Below, one piece after another: positions 2,318-38,534 of a DNA stretch of 39,625 nucleotides; within the stretch, counting starts at the first letter, position 1; every line of letters starts with the position of its first letter. The position numbers and the translations under genes are program-made. Origin of the DNA: a virus. Taxonomy: Duplodnaviria > Heunggongvirae > Uroviricota > Caudoviricetes. The notes below the pieces were generated by a model that was not told where the DNA came from, did not search any database, and saw only the letters and a program-made list of their open reading frames with translations. Location of the stretch: IMG/VR virus record IMGVR_UViG_2545824712_000011; one strand, given 5' to 3'.

Positions 2318-3253
2318 TCAGTAGTTATGTACTGAAGGAGGTAATTCTTTATTCTTAAGTCTCATCCATGCGGAAAGATTCGTTGGTCCGTCTGGCTCAT
2401 TGATATCAACATCGCGTGTGTGATTGATTAAAACGTCTCTCGCCATTCCGATAACATACGAGAATTCATGACCGTAGTCGTAGCATCTGCCGGAATAGTT
2501 CGATTGAATTTGTTTTAATGCCGGATACAGTTCGCGGAATAATGCCTGTGAGCGGTTAGCATAATCCCATAACCATACAAGGCTGTTTGCTTCTTTTGCA
2601 GAAAGCTCGTTGGTTTTCTTCTCTTGTTTGCCAATGAACTCACCTTCAAGTGGAACTCGAGCTGCAAGTGATAGTGCTTCGGTAAACTGCTCCTCACTGA
2701 TTTCTTTGTACGAACATCCAAAATGGGATTTCAGTGACGACCACATGGTGATCATCGCCTTAGCCTGTTTTTCTTTTGGCAGAGACTGACCGCGACTCAT
2801 GACGAGTTGTTTAATGGCTTCCTGCTGTTCAGTGGTGATTTTACCCGGCAACGCCTTTTTAGCTTTGCGTGGGTTAACTACATGACCTTTAGTCCAGTAG
2901 TCATGCAGCACGCTAAAGCATTCTTCCTGGTACTGAATCAGTTTATCACGGATGTCAGCACGAACTTTCTCAGGGTTGATGCTGAACAGCCATCCATTTA
3001 ACTTCTTCAGCGGGATGCATAAAAGCTTACGTAACTTGCCATCAGCAGCAACCATAGAGATATCTCTACAGTTGAATTTGTCCTTCATTTTACGCAACTT
3101 AACAGATTGACCAGTCCAGTCGATACCAATGTTTTCCACAATTTGACGCATCGCTACATAAGTCACTCCGGCAGCCACAGCGGTTAAAATCTGCTGACCA
3201 TTGAAAGGCACGTAAGAGGTGTTCACTGCTTCTAAAATTGCTATACTATTCAT
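2318..3253 (-). CDS. ant: Antirepressor Ant
   Basis: Starts [21 protein letters not shown]... at ATG 3253 with GGAG upstream; position downstream of arc as in P22 immI. Confidence 0.8.
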
Positions 3254-3321
3254 GTTGGTTTTTCTCCACGAATTTACCGACAACCGAAGCCCTGACTGTT
3301 CCCGCAGTTGGGGCTTCAACT

Positions 3322-3483
3322 TTACGCGCCAATGCGCCCTTCCTTCTTAAAGCTGTCCATTACTCTCTGATAAATCTCAGAGTTAACAGACCGACCATTC
3401 TCTTCCGCCACCTTGCGTACCAAATCCAATACTTCTTTAGGCCACCGCAAATTGAACTGCGGCATTTTTCTTGCGCCTTGCAT
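3322..3483 (-). CDS. arc: Arc repressor (ribbon-helix-helix)
   Basis: 53 aa [53 protein letters not shown], near-identical to P22 Arc as recalled. Confidence 0.9.
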
Positions 3484-3576
3484 ATTCCACTCCATTCCAT
3501 TAAATGATAGCACCGTACTACTATTGAAAGCGTACTACTACCGTTCTAGCATGTCAACAAATAACAGGAGAGCGAC
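3484..3576. promoter_or_regulatory. immI divergent promoter/operator region (Pant / Pmnt)
   Basis: Intergenic between divergent arc and mnt; contains direct repeat GTACTACTA x2 (CCGTACTACTATTGAAAGCGTACTACTACCG). Confidence 0.55.
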
Positions 3577-3816
3577 GTGGCTAGAAACGATCCACAATTT
3601 AACGTAAGAATGCCAAGTGAAATCAAGCAGCAGCTTACTCACATTGCGGCAACAAACAGGCGCTCTATCAATGCTGAAATCATAGCTGCAATACAGCTAT
3701 GGATTAAGATTAACAGAGAAAAGGTCATACCATCGACATCTCAAGATCTCACAAAAACAGAGAAGGAAGCAATGGATATTGCAATTAGCGTACTTAAGAA
3801 GATTCGAGGCCAATAA
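3577..3816 (+). CDS. mnt: Mnt-like ribbon-helix-helix repressor
   Basis: MARNDPQFNVRMPSEIKQQL... resembles P22 Mnt N-terminus; GTG start with AGGAG 7 nt upstream; divergent from arc. Confidence 0.75.
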   Translation: MARNDPQFNVRMPSEIKQQLTHIAATNRRSINAEIIAAIQLWIKINREKVIPSTSQDLTKTEKEAMDIAISVLKKIRGQ

Positions 3817-4163
3817 TGAGCAGTAAGGAGCAATACTTAAAAGTTACTTTTGAGTCTTTTAGTAATTACTTGACTTCATTCAAAAAAACTTATGTATGCC
3901 CAATATGCAGCAATACAAACTGGACTCTTTTAGCACCTGAGCATCTTAAAAAAGATGATGGTGTTGAAGTTATAGGCCCATCCATACCAGGTAAAAGCTT
4001 GCCTAATAATCCTGTTAATCAAGATACTTATAGCAACGATAGTCTTAACATGGTAGCCATGCAATGCACCACTTGCGGTTTCTTCCACTTTTTTAGTTTA
4101 AACAAAGTTAGTGAAAATATCTCTTCTGGAAAATTCGTAAAGGGTGATGGAGATAATGTTTGA
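3816..4163 (+). CDS. Hypothetical zinc-ribbon protein (CxxC...CxxC), first gene of AT-rich cassette
   Basis: ATG overlaps mnt stop (TAATG); CPIC at residues 28-31 and CTTC at 84-87; about 30-35% G+C by rough count. Confidence 0.6.
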   Translation: MSSKEQYLKVTFESFSNYLTSFKKTYVCPICSNTNWTLLAPEHLKKDDGVEVIGPSIPGKSLPNNPVNQDTYSNDSLNMVAMQCTTCGFFHFFSLNKVSENISSGKFVKGDGDNV

Positions 4164-4656
4164 CCAACATGTTCACAATAAATCACCTAGTATTTATGGA
4201 GATGCTCAAAGCCAACATGAAAACCTTGACTTTGACAAATCGTTATGGAGTTCAATAGAAAACGCTAAATATTCAGAGTATTACAGACCAACTGACAGAA
4301 ATCCGTCAAAGGAACCACAAATATTTAGCCTACAAGAAGAGCAACACAAAGAAGAAGGTCGTGATACCGTGAAACGTTTAGAGCTATACGGGGTTGCAGT
4401 TGCTATCATTGGTTCTATCGTTGCCGCCACATGGACGATTCGAGGCACTATAGATGATAAAGTTGAATCATCACGACAAGAGCTAACAGGAAACATCCAA
4501 ACCAGTAAGGCAGAGATAATGGCTACTATCCAAAACAACCAATCAGTATTACAGTCAAGGATTGATAACACTGATCAAAAATTAGACTCAACAAACCAAT
4601 CTCTTTATAAGGTATTGGCTATATTAGAGTCTCAAAAAGACAAACGTTCTCAATAG
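4144..4656 (+). CDS. Hypothetical single-pass membrane protein with C-terminal coiled-coil-like domain
   Basis: Start overlaps upstream gene (alternative ATG at 4156 overlapping its TGA); hydrophobic segment LELYGVAVAIIGSIVAATWTI; polar heptad-like C-terminal region. Confidence 0.6.
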   Translation: MMEIMFDQHVHNKSPSIYGDAQSQHENLDFDKSLWSSIENAKYSEYYRPTDRNPSKEPQIFSLQEEQHKEEGRDTVKRLELYGVAVAIIGSIVAATWTIRGTIDDKVESSRQELTGNIQTSKAEIMATIQNNQSVLQSRIDNTDQKLDSTNQSLYKVLAILESQKDKRSQ

Positions 4657-4677
4657 TTTCTTGATTTATTACCTATA

Positions 4678-4712
4678 GCTGCATGATTGATGTCTGTTGA
4701 AAATCATGCAGC
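4678..4712. repeat. Perfect 11-bp inverted repeat GCTGCATGATT-N13-AATCATGCAGC
   Basis: Read directly; lies between second and third cassette genes, no T-tract after it. Confidence 0.8.
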
Positions 4713-4736
4713 ATTGATAAATCTAAGGAGATCGGC

Positions 4737-5057
4737 ATGTACATATCGCTCTCTACCATTTTTTTCATCTGCTTAGCTATTTGGCTTTTAAGAATATGGC
4801 AGGATTGCTCTGTCAGCCATGCTGCTGCGGTGAGAAATAAAAACGCCCTCATAAAAGAAGCTGAAAACGTTGTCTTATCAATGGATCACCTTTCATGGAC
4901 CGAGATGACTACAGGGCAACAAGAGGTTTATGAGTGTGCGATTGAGCGGTTAAGGCTGCTTAAATCGTACAAAAAGAACCACGCTCCCGACTCATTCCCA
5001 TTCCTGAAAGAATGGCCGAGATGGTATGACCCGAAAAAAGCAACCATCAACCGCTAA
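4737..5057 (+). CDS. Hypothetical small membrane-anchored protein
   Basis: AAGGAG 8 nt upstream of ATG; N-terminal hydrophobic segment MYISLSTIFFICLAIWLLRIW; stop 8 bp from convergent gp16 stop. Confidence 0.55.
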   Translation: MYISLSTIFFICLAIWLLRIWQDCSVSHAAAVRNKNALIKEAENVVLSMDHLSWTEMTTGQQEVYECAIERLRLLKSYKKNHAPDSFPFLKEWPRWYDPKKATINR

Positions 5058-5065
5058 CCAACTTT

Positions 5066-7069
5066 TTACTGCTGGGCTTGCTCACTTGAAGCCTGAATTA
5101 GAGGTGTAAGAGTTTCAGATACCCGTCTGATCGCTCTATCATAAGCAGTACTTCCTTTTGGCGTGTTTGCTAACTTTAGTAATGCGTTCCTCATCGCGCG
5201 TGACTCATAGCCCCTGCCAGCCATACCGATACCAGCTCCAACTGCCGCAACTTTTGCAAACATTGGATTTGTAACAGACGCAAGAGCTGTTATCAGCGCT
5301 GCTGGACCAGCTACCATTTGCCCTGTTAGTGGGCTTGCGGCAGCAGTAGCTGCCTGTCTAGTGGAATCAAGATATTTCATTATCCCATCAAGCTGTTTCC
5401 CATGCTCTCCTCTGAAGAACGTCTCAGCCTGCTTCCGATTCCTTTTCATTTCATTAATAAACTTCTCAACGCTAAGCTTTCCTGAATCGCTTGTCGCCTT
5501 ATCCATTGCACGCTGAACAAGTGCTGCTCTAGCATTTTGACGCCCACTATCATCAAGCAATCGATAAAGTTGCGCCCTTTCCGCTGGGCTTTGGCTGAAT
5601 ACTAGTTTAGTGACATCTTCTGGCGTTGTTTTACCACTCTGAATAGCTTTTTGGACACGTGTATTGCTCATCATGTCGTTGAACTTTGCCCAAGAACGAT
5701 CAACACGCGACATGTTTTGCGCTTCCTTCGCACCTAGTTTTGCGCCAACCGCTTTTTTCATGTCTGTTGTGTATGCGTTATAAACAGACTGCGCAGCTTT
5801 CTCCAGCGTATCTCTATCGACCTCGTCAGGTGCTGCCATAAAGCGCTTACGTAAGTTTGTACGGTTTTCTCTAGCTAATTGCAGGTTATTTGGACCGCTG
5901 GTGATGTCATTTCTAAACTGTTGAAGGACAGAAACAGCTGAGCGGTCTTGCGATACTCCTGGGCGAGTTAACTTGGAAATCTGCTCATCAATTGCTTTCA
6001 CTGTTCCAGTGATGTCAACAGGAGTATCCCCCATCAAACTGATGATCCTGTCGTACCGCTTGCCAGCAGCCTGAATAAATTGCTGCTGACCACGAGTAGC
6101 TGATTGGTAAAGTTGTGCGTCAGATATTCCACCAACATTATCGCTAAATGTTCTAACTAAATCTTCCCTGGCCTTTTGCTGTGCATTTCTTATCCCACCT
6201 GTTCCGGCTATTGGGATTCGCTCAGCCATAGCTCGTGCTTGCTTACCAATATTTGTTCCCGGTTCCACAAGATCTGTTGTCATCAGTGGCAAGTTGTTCT
6301 GCTTGGCAAAGTCAATCTGAGCTTGTTTTTCAGGAGCAATCTTACCCATAGCAGAACGAGACACTGCGCTTGCGGTGTTTTCTACACCCTTTAGTACCCC
6401 ACCAAGACCAGCAGAAATTGCAGTTTGAACTGGATTAACATTCTCACCGCCAGCGATCTTAGTGGCACCCTGTAAAGCTAAATCAGTAGCGCCTGATTTT
6501 AGTGTTGCACCTACAACAGACGCAGCTCTACCTGCTGGAGTGAATGCAAGAGCATTTGCCAAGAATGACGTTATATCCTGCGGTGACAAACCAGGCTTGT
6601 TAAGTGCATATTCCCCTGAAGGAAGGGTGACTATGGAATTTCCCTTCTCATCCTTCCGGATTTTCCCGCCAATACTTTGCAGTATTTTCTCCTGTGAAGC
6701 GTCGGAACCAAATAGCTGCCCCAATCCAGCACGCAGCGCATCAGTGCTTAAGCTATTAAGCTCTGGAGCAGACCCAACATTTTGCAGTCTCTCCATTTCT
6801 GGTGTCATTCGGCTTTCACCGGTAACGGCATCGCGCATTGCAGCACCTAAAACAGCCCCTTGCTCAGCAGAGCGATCTAGTCCTTCCTTCTGCTGAGTGG
6901 CAAGCTGTGCATATCCTGATGCAAGTGAGTTGTCTGCTGGCGATTGCTGAACACCTTGTTGTGTTGGTGCTGACTGACCAGCAAAATACTCATCAATGGC
7001 GGTGCCAATATCTTCGGTGCTCGTACCATCAGGAAAGGTAAATGTCTTACCGTTTGCAGTTACTTTCAT
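5066..7069 (-). CDS. Ejection (DNA transfer) protein, P22 gp16-like
   Basis: [29 protein letters not shown]... and gene order gp7-gp20-gp16 as in P22; ATG overlaps gp20 stop. Confidence 0.75.
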   Translation of the reverse strand: MKVTANGKTFTFPDGTSTEDIGTAIDEYFAGQSAPTQQGVQQSPADNSLASGYAQLATQQKEGLDRSAEQGAVLGAAMRDAVTGESRMTPEMERLQNVGSAPELNSLSTDALRAGLGQLFGSDASQEKILQSIGGKIRKDEKGNSIVTLPSGEYALNKPGLSPQDITSFLANALAFTPAGRAASVVGATLKSGATDLALQGATKIAGGENVNPVQTAISAGLGGVLKGVENTASAVSRSAMGKIAPEKQAQIDFAKQNNLPLMTTDLVEPGTNIGKQARAMAERIPIAGTGGIRNAQQKAREDLVRTFSDNVGGISDAQLYQSATRGQQQFIQAAGKRYDRIISLMGDTPVDITGTVKAIDEQISKLTRPGVSQDRSAVSVLQQFRNDITSGPNNLQLARENRTNLRKRFMAAPDEVDRDTLEKAAQSVYNAYTTDMKKAVGAKLGAKEAQNMSRVDRSWAKFNDMMSNTRVQKAIQSGKTTPEDVTKLVFSQSPAERAQLYRLLDDSGRQNARAALVQRAMDKATSDSGKLSVEKFINEMKRNRKQAETFFRGEHGKQLDGIMKYLDSTRQAATAAASPLTGQMVAGPAALITALASVTNPMFAKVAAVGAGIGMAGRGYESRAMRNALLKLANTPKGSTAYDRAIRRVSETLTPLIQASSEQAQQ

Positions 7070-8484
7070 CATTCCACCGTAAATTGAATGCCTGATTTTG
7101 AGGTATATGATCCAACCTGACTCCGTGGTTCTCCTGAAGGTGTCGAATCTTGTGCTGGCGCTGCGTCAGTATTCATTGACATATACCGCTTAACGGCACT
7201 CCCCAATGATTCACCTTTTTTAACATCCAACCCCAATATCTGACCGCCATTACGCGATTGTCCAGGGTTGCCATTCGCGCTCATCCACTCGGCTTTAAAC
7301 TCATTAAACTGCGCGTTTCGTCGCTCAAGGTTTGCCATTGCATCAAGCCATCTTGCGACCGTCTCAGGGTTATCCATGTCAGTTGGCGCCCCCTGTCTAA
7401 CGATCTCAACGTCTTTATCCGTTGCTGGGCCGGGAGGTAGGAATTTAAGAACCTGACTGTTAACAAGGGCATTTTGGCGAATGCGCAAATCACGCAATGT
7501 CGTATCGCTTCCGGTAAGTTTTGCGAACATGTTCTGTGCGTTACCGAACAAACCTGTCGTTGGTTTTTCTGCTCTGAACTGTTGAGCAAGCGCACTCATG
7601 GAATTGGCTGAGTTTGATGATGCTGTGGCATTGTTTACAGCCGTCTCGATTCCTTTTTCCATGTTTACTGACAGCTTAGGTGCTTCGCTAATCAACTGCT
7701 GAGCCTTTTCCTGCGCTTGCTGCATCTTAAACCCGAACTCTTGCTGATCCAGAGCCAAGCGTTGTGCTGCGATATTGTGCCCAGTCATTGCTGACTGATA
7801 GGAAAGGTTTTGCCCTCTCGCCTGAAGTGCTTCACCAGCCTGATTGCTGCGGATTGTCTCTGCCAGCCTGCCTCGGTCAATTTCACGACCAGCCATCTTA
7901 TCCTGAACAGCAAACGCCTTTTCTGGTCCAAGCGCACCGAGAGACATAGTAGTCAGCATGTGTGATAGCTGCTCTGGATTCTGGATACCTGTCTGAATCA
8001 TCCAGTCAGCATTAGCACCAACGCGATTTAACCTGTCCTTGTTGTCAGTAATGAATTTACTGTAGGCTTCCGGCCCCTGAGAAAGAGCGACGTTAGCCCT
8101 CATGGCTAAATCGCCCATATCGTTGCGTTGCTGATCATTAAGACCGGAAAACGCCTGTTGTGCCTGTGCAACAAACGCTGGATTTTCCTGGGCAAACTTA
8201 AATAGTCCCGATGGATCACCAGAAGCCCATGCATCAGCGTGAACCTTATTGAACGCACTAATAGCTTTCTGTTGCTGTTCCTGATTGTAAATATCAGCAA
8301 CTCCAGCCAGACCACGTAACGCGGTCAGGCCAACGTTATTTGCACCTGAGCGAGCCAGTTCATTGTTTTCGCGGATCAGACCAAGCGTTGCGTTAATGTC
8401 GCTTGCCTTTGGCGCATTCTCATTTTGCGTACCGATGCCAGCCAGAAAACCACCAGAATTAATACCCTGTTGCCACGTAGCCAT
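7069..8484 (-). CDS. Ejection protein, P22 gp20-like
   Basis: 471 aa, same length and position as P22 gp20. Confidence 0.75.
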
Positions 8485-19083: not shown

Positions 19084-19375
19084 TTATCCGTTAAAAGGGA
19101 TATCAGTTAAGTTATCCCGTGTAGGGTATAAGCCATTATCAAAGCCACTCTGTAGGAAGTGGCTTTTGTAATGGCAATAAAAAGCCCCGCGAATGCGAGG
19201 CTAAATCCTGGTATTTGTAATGACTGGCTCTTATCTCAACGCAGCCCCTTACCGCGCGCAAAATGCTCAATATCAAGCATCAGCAATGAGATGTTTAATC
19301 TGGATTCACTCCAGAAGTGATCACCACCCTGTCTACAGAGCCAGATGTGAAGGATGATGAGTAAAATTATCGCTA

Positions 19376-37630: not shown

Positions 37631-38378
37631 GATGACAGGACTAGATGCGTTTTATAACGAGTCAGAAGATAAAATCTGGTTTGGTAATCTGATCAGCGAA
37701 CTGGCAAGACTAAACAATGAAAATGAAAGAATGATAGCTGCCGCTATCTTAAGTAACTACAGATTGAGCAAGACTAAACCAGATACTTTAGGGGGGCTGG
37801 GCTTTTATCAGTTCGATTGGGTATCTGGTTTTACGACAAATGAAGACTTTGAAAAGCAGTGTGTGGAGTTTTTAGGTCTTCTGGCTATGGGGCATGAATA
37901 CAGGGAGAGCCCGATACCGGGGGAAGAAGGGACTTTCAACGTTAGGAAAGGAGAAGACTTTTTATATCACGATGATGAGGATGATTGGTATGGGTCTTAC
38001 GATTCGTTTTATTTCAAGCGATCCGAGGTTGTGAACTTCTTCCCAGAACTGGATATGAATGTTCCAGATAACGAACCAGAAATTGGAGCACTGTCAAAAA
38101 AAGTAGAAAGAGAACAAAACTGGAGAGGAAAAGATACGGCTTTAAAGATGATCGCCGGAATGGCGATTGCCTTATTTGAATCAAGCAAAGATTTCCATAG
38201 TGGAGGAAACCTTAGTATCAATAGGGTTAGTGCCCAAGTAATAGAAAACAACATAATATTCGGGAACGATGAAGACAGCGATACCCACCCAGATACATTT
38301 CGGAGATTGCTAACGAACGCTTTGGATAAGTACGCCCCCAAATTTAAGAACAAAGCAACCAAAAAGCGTCCAAAATAA
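37623..38378 (+). CDS. Hypothetical 251-aa protein co-transcribed with int
   Basis: Start overlaps int stop (GTG 37623 or ATG 37632); acidic, no recognisable motif. Confidence 0.55.
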   Translation: MTKMTGLDAFYNESEDKIWFGNLISELARLNNENERMIAAAILSNYRLSKTKPDTLGGLGFYQFDWVSGFTTNEDFEKQCVEFLGLLAMGHEYRESPIPGEEGTFNVRKGEDFLYHDDEDDWYGSYDSFYFKRSEVVNFFPELDMNVPDNEPEIGALSKKVEREQNWRGKDTALKMIAGMAIALFESSKDFHSGGNLSINRVSAQVIENNIIFGNDEDSDTHPDTFRRLLTNALDKYAPKFKNKATKKRPK

Positions 38379-38534
38379 AGGAAGGATGTTCCCAAATTGT
38401 GCGTTAGAACTAAAAAATAACGCCCAATTTGGGGTAATTCTATTCCCAAAAATTTTTTCTCCAAATTCACAGAAAACTTAAAAAAACAATGATTTACTAT
38501 CTCACATAGTCAAGCAACGTATTACGAGGTAGAT

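Follow-up and report, generated by a model that had tools for sequence, protein, structure and literature searches.

Genes and features of the immI region

The stretch of DNA analysed here (the window, 39,625 nt) is that of a P22-like podovirus, and its positions 3300-5300 are 100% identical to Escherichia phage N7 (MH717096, Lederbergvirus) and to HZ41. A cassette of three genes, here called g1, g2 and g3, sits in immI, in an orientation inverted relative to the usual P22 map. The genes and signals around it are as follows.

403-2217, - strand: tailspike gene
2318-3319, - strand: ant
3254-3321, + strand: sar RNA (Rfam RF00262, 94 bits, full length)
3322-3513, - strand: arc
3524-3552, + strand: candidate Pmnt-like sigma-70 promoter, TTGAAA-17-TAGCAT, called by the scanner at a position equivalent to Pmnt of epsilon34 and P22
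3577-3816, + strand: gene for a Mnt-like repressor of the Arc (ribbon-helix-helix) family (Pfam Arc, 4.8e-13), first gene of the operon
3816-4163, + strand: g1, 115 aa, zinc-ribbon-like with CxxC...CxxC, first gene of a two-gene module
4144-4656, + strand: g2, 170 aa, a transmembrane (TM) helix and a coiled coil, second gene of that module
4737-5057, + strand: g3, 106 aa, N-terminal TM helix, phrog_10450, a separate module
5066-7072, - strand: injection-protein gene of the gene-16 type

The mnt-like gene, g1 and g2 abut or overlap and therefore form one operon, in which g1 and g2 occupy the slot where P22 carries orf59a and sieA. The sar RNA is antisense to the 5' region of ant and stops 1 nt short of arc, an arrangement also seen in P22 and epsilon34. 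A direct repeat, CGTACTACTA, is present at 3514-3523 and 3531-3540, with its copies 17 bp apart and flanking the -35 hexamer of the Pmnt-like promoter; these copies are probably part of the Arc/Mnt operators. At the far end of the cassette, g3 and the convergent injection-protein gene are 8 bp apart (5058-5065), and no + strand terminator is detectable between them. In P22, late transcription runs antisense through immI to the tailspike gene, and lysogenic transcripts passing the hairpin described below would run antisense into the late operon.

The 80-nt spacer between g2 and g3 contains a perfect inverted repeat, made up of three parts.

4678-4688, + strand: left arm, GCTGCATGATT, the 5' strand of the upper stem in + strand RNA
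4689-4701, + strand: spacer or loop of 13 nt, GATGTCTGTTGAA
4702-4712, + strand: right arm, AATCATGCAGC, the 3' strand of the upper stem, followed by ATTGATAAATC without a U-tract

The initial annotation described a perfect 11-bp repeat with a 13-nt centre between the second and third cassette genes, and this matches the sequence exactly: the arms are complementary at 11 of 11 positions, and perfect pairing ends at the arms, with A opposite A outside them and G opposite A inside. The repeat lies 21 nt past the stop codon of g2 (4654-4656) and just upstream of g3, as claimed, although the distance to the g3 ATG (4737) is 24 nt and not the 25 bp first given. The 11-bp stem has five G-C pairs, and the G+C content of the hairpin is 0.43. 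No T-tract follows on either strand (tails ATTGATAAATC and TATAGGTAATA) and the terminator scanner is silent, in agreement with the earlier description.

The chance expectation was taken from 200 simulations of the window by a first-order Markov model. It is 0.17 per window for a perfect 11-bp inverted repeat whose loop has 3-20 nt, and at least one such repeat occurred in 13% of the simulations; with loops of up to 40 nt, two such repeats are observed against 0.46 expected. As a bare sequence feature the repeat is only modestly unusual, and it is more notable because of its intergenic position and its folding energy. The second perfect 11-bp repeat has a 34-nt spacer and lies at 37776-37831. 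Imperfect inverted repeats are also found at 38391-38433 (16 nt, 94%, 11-nt spacer) and at 19132-19175 (18 nt, 89%, 8-nt spacer).

Predicted folding and possible protein binding in the g2-g3 spacer

The 51-nt repeat region folds at -16.9 kcal/mol (z = -3.8 on the + strand and -4.5 on the - strand), and 0 of 200 shuffles fold as well. The energy of the repeat hairpin ranges from -15.4 to -16.9 kcal/mol, and its upper stem is paired with a probability of about 0.99 in all contexts. The perfect repeat is the core of a longer palindrome that fills the spacer and extends to the ribosome-binding region of g3.

4660-4727, + strand: extended imperfect palindrome of ~68 nt, predicted to form a 25-bp bulged helix (3 + 9 + 2 + 11 bp)
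4725-4730, + strand: Shine-Dalgarno (SD) sequence of g3, AAGGAG, kept in all g3 contexts

In the lower stem of this helix, 4660-4671 is predicted to pair with 4714-4727 in + strand RNA. The extended helix has an energy of -21.9 kcal/mol alone and -23.2 kcal/mol in its 86-nt context; four bulges interrupt it, and the lower stem is AU-rich and marginally significant (z = -2.8, 86 nt).

Intercistronic sites of phage T7 are RNase III substrates, and a bulged helix of about 25 bp at 4660-4727 has a size compatible with such substrates. An RNase III site calls for some 20 bp or more of near-continuous dsRNA, and the 25 bp predicted here are broken by the four bulges. The helix could accordingly be a cleavage site of the RNase III type that parts the g1-g2 message from that of g3, or the lower stem could couple the translation of g3 to that of g2, in which case a ribosome terminating at the g2 stop would melt the lower stem. 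The base of the lower stem begins 4 nt past the g2 stop and its other strand reaches the AAG of the SD, and in folding predictions with 4642-4669 forced to be unpaired, the probability that 4725-4726 is unpaired rises from about 0.5 to about 0.98, which is in favour of coupling. However, the lower stem touches just these first 2-3 nt, so that sequestration of the SD by the palindrome was rejected, and folding predicts that the SD core GGAG (4727-4730) is paired with sequence further downstream in either case. The local SD/AUG hairpin (4728-4753) is weak as well, and no stronger than in other g3 alleles (-6.1 vs -6.8 kcal/mol, z = -0.7), for which reason the idea that the substitutions at 4722-4751 evolved to strengthen it was rejected. 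Both cleavage and coupling are further weakened by the marginal lower stem and by the short terminators of the diverged relatives, none of which has such a long helix, and this pair of mechanisms is judged quite unlikely.

The repeat has no family in Rfam 15, where the best match is mir-2013 at 24.9 bits against a gathering score of 70; a known RNA family was rejected because 4658-4729 gives sub-threshold, miRNA-precursor-like noise alone. Three other readings were dropped from the sequence alone: an integron attC-like site, as there are no R'/R'' cores in register; a retron, as there is no RT; and a type I toxin-antitoxin system, as g3 is too long.

The initial annotation also considered a dimeric protein-binding site. 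In such a case the Mnt-like repressor, g1, a phage repressor or a host factor would bind the DNA as an operator and block or modulate transcription into g3 or antisense late transcription. The dyad symmetry of the half-sites is perfect over 11 bp, and the cassette does encode ribbon-helix-helix and zinc-ribbon proteins. However, the scanner called neither a promoter nor a terminator in the g2-g3 spacer and found no sigma-70-like site in 4600-4740, so no promoter-like site overlaps the repeat or lies near it. The best candidate found by eye for a g3 promoter in the spacer, TTGAAA-N15-TAAATC (8/12), was rejected, as it would start transcription inside the SD. The half-site does not recur above chance in the phage (19 matches at no more than two mismatches, 19 expected), and in seven related cassettes it is likewise absent as a motif (3 weak matches, 2.6 expected). 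LexA (CTG-N10-CAG) and CRP-like boxes are not seen by eye in the repeat, which also bears no resemblance to the repeats of the Pant/Pmnt region. The centres of the half-sites are 24 bp apart, or about 2.3 helical turns, and thus out of phase for a simple dimer, while the model of g1 resembles generic zinc ribbons alone, with no significant match. An operator is very unlikely on these grounds, and the idea of a dimeric binding site is not supported. An RNA hairpin inside the operon, which was the other suggestion made initially, is the best reading, given the strong fold (z = -3.8) and a spacer without a promoter.

The g1-g2 module, its terminators and the mosaic joint

A full HMMER scan gave about a dozen relatives of g1 at 30-35% identity, and homologs of g1 and g2 (30-39% identity) occur as two overlapping genes in each of seven independent lineages. 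The first protein of the module is zinc-ribbon-like, with CxxC...CxxC, and has 104-133 aa; the second, of 148-177 aa, has one TM helix and a coiled coil, and in it W97, I103, R111, E113, E124 and D141 are invariant. All seven diverged lineages have a canonical intrinsic terminator 4-67 nt past the g2 homolog. The pairs and terminators, given in the coordinates of each record, are as follows.

L040, another P22-like phage, same immI slot: pair 3001-3884; terminator 3892-3911, ATCGGCAC-GGTT-GTGCCGAT + TTTTTT
L048, pair adjoining smpB: pair 3501-4294; terminator 4302-4324, ACCGCCTC-TAGTT-GAGGCGGT + GTTGTTTAT
L049/50 and L051-53 (L049-L053), Providencia lambdoid prophages: pairs 3501-4389; terminator 4393-4411 in L049/50 and 4406-4424 in L051-53, AGCCCTC-CCCGC-GAGGGCT + TTTTTG
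L054/55: pair 443-1266 in L054; terminator 1334-1356, AAGCAGCC-TAAAA-GGCTGCTT + TTTTG
L056, metagenomic: pair 2486-3338; terminator 3343-3362, ACCCGGC-CACCGT-GCCGGGT + TTTTTTT
L057, metagenomic: pair 2501-3329; terminator about 3381-3406, AAGCCCGC-CATTGA-GCGGGCTT + TTTTG

The pair lies directly 3' of a gene for a CI-type repressor (HTH and Peptidase_S24) in four lineages (L049/50, L051-53, L056 and L057), which is the position of rexAB in lambda, and 3' of a Mnt-like repressor gene in two P22-like phages, the window and L040. When window 3577-4656 was compared with 2771-3884 of L040, the Mnt-like protein was 82% identical, g1 34% and g2 39%, a pattern suggesting either that g1 and g2 evolve very fast or that a distant allele has replaced them next to a repressor gene that stayed conserved. 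L040 also has a third gene, which is unrelated to g3 and was rejected as a homolog. A perfect 12-bp inverted repeat, TCGCCACTATCA-N10-TGATAGTGGCGA, occurs at 4264-4297 of L040, just past the stop of this third gene and within the 3' part of the coding sequence of the convergent injection-protein gene. It provides a further example, in a P22-like immI, of a hairpin with a long stem and a large loop.

By sequence, nothing significant was found for the g1-g2 pair in Pfam, PADLOC, NCBIfam or PDB, and Foldseek with the moderate-confidence AF2 model of g1 (pLDDT 68.6) gave a generic likeness to zinc ribbons and no significant match. The pair is a candidate lysogen-expressed exclusion or defence pair because it is repeatedly placed in prophage repressor operons. 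This context, a conserved and uncharacterised module, is a more valuable product of the analysis than the hairpin itself.

The window repeat is, by its place after g2, a positional counterpart of the terminators of the relatives. A stable stem-loop does follow directly on the last gene of the module, but it lacks the U-tract, the compact loop and the G+C-rich stem of an intrinsic terminator. Against a U-tract of at least 5 U in about 8 nt, the + strand tail ATTGATAA has 3 T in 8, and the - strand tail TATAGGTA also falls short. The loop of 13 nt compares with 3-8 nt for a compact loop, and the G+C content of 0.43 compares with 0.48-0.79 in the relatives. On a score of the d'Aubenton-Carafa type, which serves for relative comparison alone, the hairpin reaches -52 on the + strand and -51 on the - strand, while four lineages score from +10 to +19 and L048 scores -13. 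The - strand score and the lack of a T-tract rule out a terminator for late transcription on that strand. The opinion that the repeat is not a terminator is thus borne out by its form, with no U-tract and a 13-nt loop, but less so by its location, in a slot that holds a canonical terminator in 7/7 diverged relatives.

The 68-nt element is identical in all known copies of the hairpin, which come from 41 E. coli genomes, six IMG/VR contigs, two phages and two metagenome contigs, the last two encoding a g2 variant. Copies of the region are 99.7-100% identical overall, and E. coli strain EP91A has a prophage region that matches at 100%; no diverged copies of the hairpin were found among the g1 and g2 homolog searches, which gave near-identical clusters. 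Every copy is identical, which leaves no variation for a test of covariation or selection, and the perfection of the repeat in such clonal copies implies no selection. The conservation in related prophages that the initial annotation asked about is complete (100% in 41 prophages of E. coli), but it is uninformative because they are clones that hardly differ. The hairpin occurs once per genome in 41 of 5426 E. coli genomes and always inside the cassette. A dispersed repeat of the REP, BIME, ERIC or MITE kind is ruled out by the single copy, by the restriction to cassette carriers and by matches in phages at chance level alone.

The three-gene cassette is a mosaic of two independent modules, g1-g2 and g3. 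The whole region is present at 99% identity or more in 41/5426 complete E. coli genomes, while 19 further E. coli prophage records match window 4719-5070 alone, that is, g3 with its SD. In those prophages and in IMG/VR contigs (L002-L004, L013-L037), g3 always adjoins the injection-protein gene, and it is preceded by about ten unrelated sequences, including truncated mnt, divergent genes and other small genes, which makes the site upstream of g3 a hot spot of recombination. In none of the contexts was a promoter-like site found for g3, even where the upstream neighbour is divergent. A similarity of g3 to HkcB of HK620 and epsilon34 was looked for and not found, so this identity is ruled out. 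Two plasmid-listed records of 39,448 bp, NZ_CP081786.1 and NZ_CP081778.1 (E. coli 0H26 and 0H24), have g3 beside hypothetical genes; both probably represent the genome of a P22-like phage that was assembled as a circle outside the chromosome.

The joint is placed as follows.

4719-4751, no strand: junction zone, with likeness to other g3 alleles beginning at about 4719

Of the 8-10 differences from other g3 alleles, seven cluster at 4722-4751, including a change from GTG to ATG at 4737, while from 4752 on the alleles are more than 99% identical, with 1-3 differing positions up to 5070. This distribution implies that the last recombination joint lies inside g3 and that the hairpin and the diverged g3 leader came from an unsampled donor lineage; the patch at 4722-4751 is better explained as the remnant of a diverged allele left by recombination. 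Because g3 has many upstream contexts, the repeat is taken to be part of the g1-g2 side, at its 3' end. Elsewhere, a hairpin precedes g3 in the L004/L029 type alone (ACCAGCC-TGAT-GGCTGGT, then TAATTTCGT); most of the about ten contexts have none, which rules out a hairpin before g3 as a general requirement.

The hairpin could also be a leftover with no function, either a decayed or replaced terminator or a palindrome that illegitimate recombination or template switching produced at the mosaic joint, and perfect only because the lineage is young and clonal. It abuts the mosaic junction at about 4713-4719, its perfection in copies that are 99.7-100% identical implies no selection, the 0.17 repeats per window expected by chance are not a negligible number, and g3 does mostly without a hairpin upstream. 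On the other hand, the slot keeps a functional-looking hairpin in 7/7 relatives, and decaying terminators normally lose stem pairs, while the stem here is longer and perfect. The palindrome also extends, imperfectly, across the whole 68 nt between the genes, and a hairpin of -16 kcal/mol, once transcribed, will affect RNA 3' ends whether it is selected or not. A functionless remnant is judged unlikely.

Probable role of the hairpin and comparison with known systems

The repeat is most likely an ordinary feature and not a special regulatory site. Starting from what is seen directly (the sequence, its position, its folding potential, the equivalence to the terminator slot, and the lack of both a U-tract and a promoter), the preferred explanation, with a probability of about 55%, is a weak or leaky terminator or pause site that is also the 3'-end-protecting hairpin of the mnt-g1-g2 mRNA, with read-through feeding g3. 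The repeat would be transcribed from the Mnt-type promoter within an mnt-g1-g2(-g3) mRNA, and the RNA would fold in vivo into a stable stem-loop whose perfect upper stem of 11 bp can be extended to about 25 bp. With its 13-nt loop and without a U-tract, this hairpin is expected to terminate poorly at best. It would cause RNA polymerase to pause or partly terminate, and would protect the processed 3' ends of the mnt-g1-g2 message. Read-through transcripts would supply g3, which has its own strong SD and which appears to need them, being on the same strand 24 nt further on with no promoter-like site between g2 and g3. The hairpin would in this way determine how strongly g1-g2 is expressed relative to g3 in the lysogen. 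The early suggestion that the repeat may separately affect the third gene agrees with this, as it could set the transcription that reaches a gene without a promoter-like site.

In E. coli, FlowSeq has shown termination to be favoured by a compact loop and a perfect U-tract (PMC9257418). The steady-state 3' ends of many E. coli mRNAs lie at stable stem-loops that lack a U-rich tail and that protect against PNPase and RNase II, and this class has been tied to Rho termination downstream (Dar & Sorek 2018, PMC6061677). The window hairpin has the structure of such a protective 3' stem-loop, being stable and without a U-rich tail. The sequence just past it is the SD and open reading frame of g3, and access of Rho would hinge on the translation of g3.

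Several findings count against a leaky terminator. A translated gene 24 nt on should hinder Rho, and chance alone would give 0.17 perfect 11-bp repeats per window. L040, the sole other P22-like context with a third gene on the same strand, has a canonical terminator, so that read-through is not evidently required by the architecture. In addition, g3 may have an unrecognised promoter, given the other contexts in which its upstream neighbour is divergent. A stronger version of the leaky terminator would be a derived and selected replacement of the terminator of the module that turns a terminated two-gene unit into one with read-through, with the unrelated membrane-protein gene g3 under the Mnt-type promoter and the helix acting as a processing or stability switch that sets g1-g2 and g3 independently. 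This version is improbable; if it were true, RNase III cleavage or binding by the zinc-ribbon protein of the cassette, in the lysogen, would be examples of the mechanism.

The hairpin alone matters little, as it adds one more intergenic stem-loop to those that temperate phages have at operon or module boundaries. Its modest use lies in showing, in a natural case, how a hairpin without a U-tract can hold the slot of a terminator at a mosaic joint, and it offers a clean substrate for asking to what extent hairpins of this kind cause termination or pausing, or protect mRNA, in E. coli.

Among known systems, the U-less 3' stem-loops of Dar & Sorek are similar to the window hairpin in being stable, in lacking a U-rich tail and in lying past a stop codon, in a genome hosted by E. 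coli. Those stem-loops precede rut sites in untranslated RNA (PMC6061677), while the window hairpin precedes a translated gene at 24 nt. The intrinsic terminators of the related cassettes share with it the slot after the g2 stop, the strand and a stable stem-loop, but the window stem is longer and AT-richer, its loop is 13 nt vs 3-6, its tail has 3 T in 8 vs 5-6, and 12 nt further on comes a gene on the same strand that has an SD of its own.

Intercistronic stem-loops and RNase III sites, such as the R sites of phage T7, lambda sib and the REP hairpins of malEFG, give differential expression within operons. The window has a long bulged helix between two cistrons of a phage operon, as in this type, and the likeness is one of resemblance only. 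In contrast to REP hairpins, the window hairpin is a unique sequence with one copy per genome and no Rfam family. The operators of P22 immI (Omnt and Oarc, bound by Mnt and Arc) are palindromic and lie in the same region, but they are 17-21 bp long and overlap Pant/Pmnt, whereas the window repeat spans 35 bp with a 13-bp centre, lies 1.1 kb downstream of the promoter region and has no sequence in common with the repeats at 3514-3540.

In the moron concept of Hendrix and Juhala, a gene of lambdoid phages is said to be flanked by its own promoter and terminator. Unlike morons, g1-g2 has no promoter of its own and always follows a repressor gene, of either the cI or the mnt type, and in the window phage its 3' hairpin is not a canonical terminator. 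Like morons, g1-g2 is an accessory module whose place of insertion varies among temperate phages and which carries a 3' hairpin of its own.
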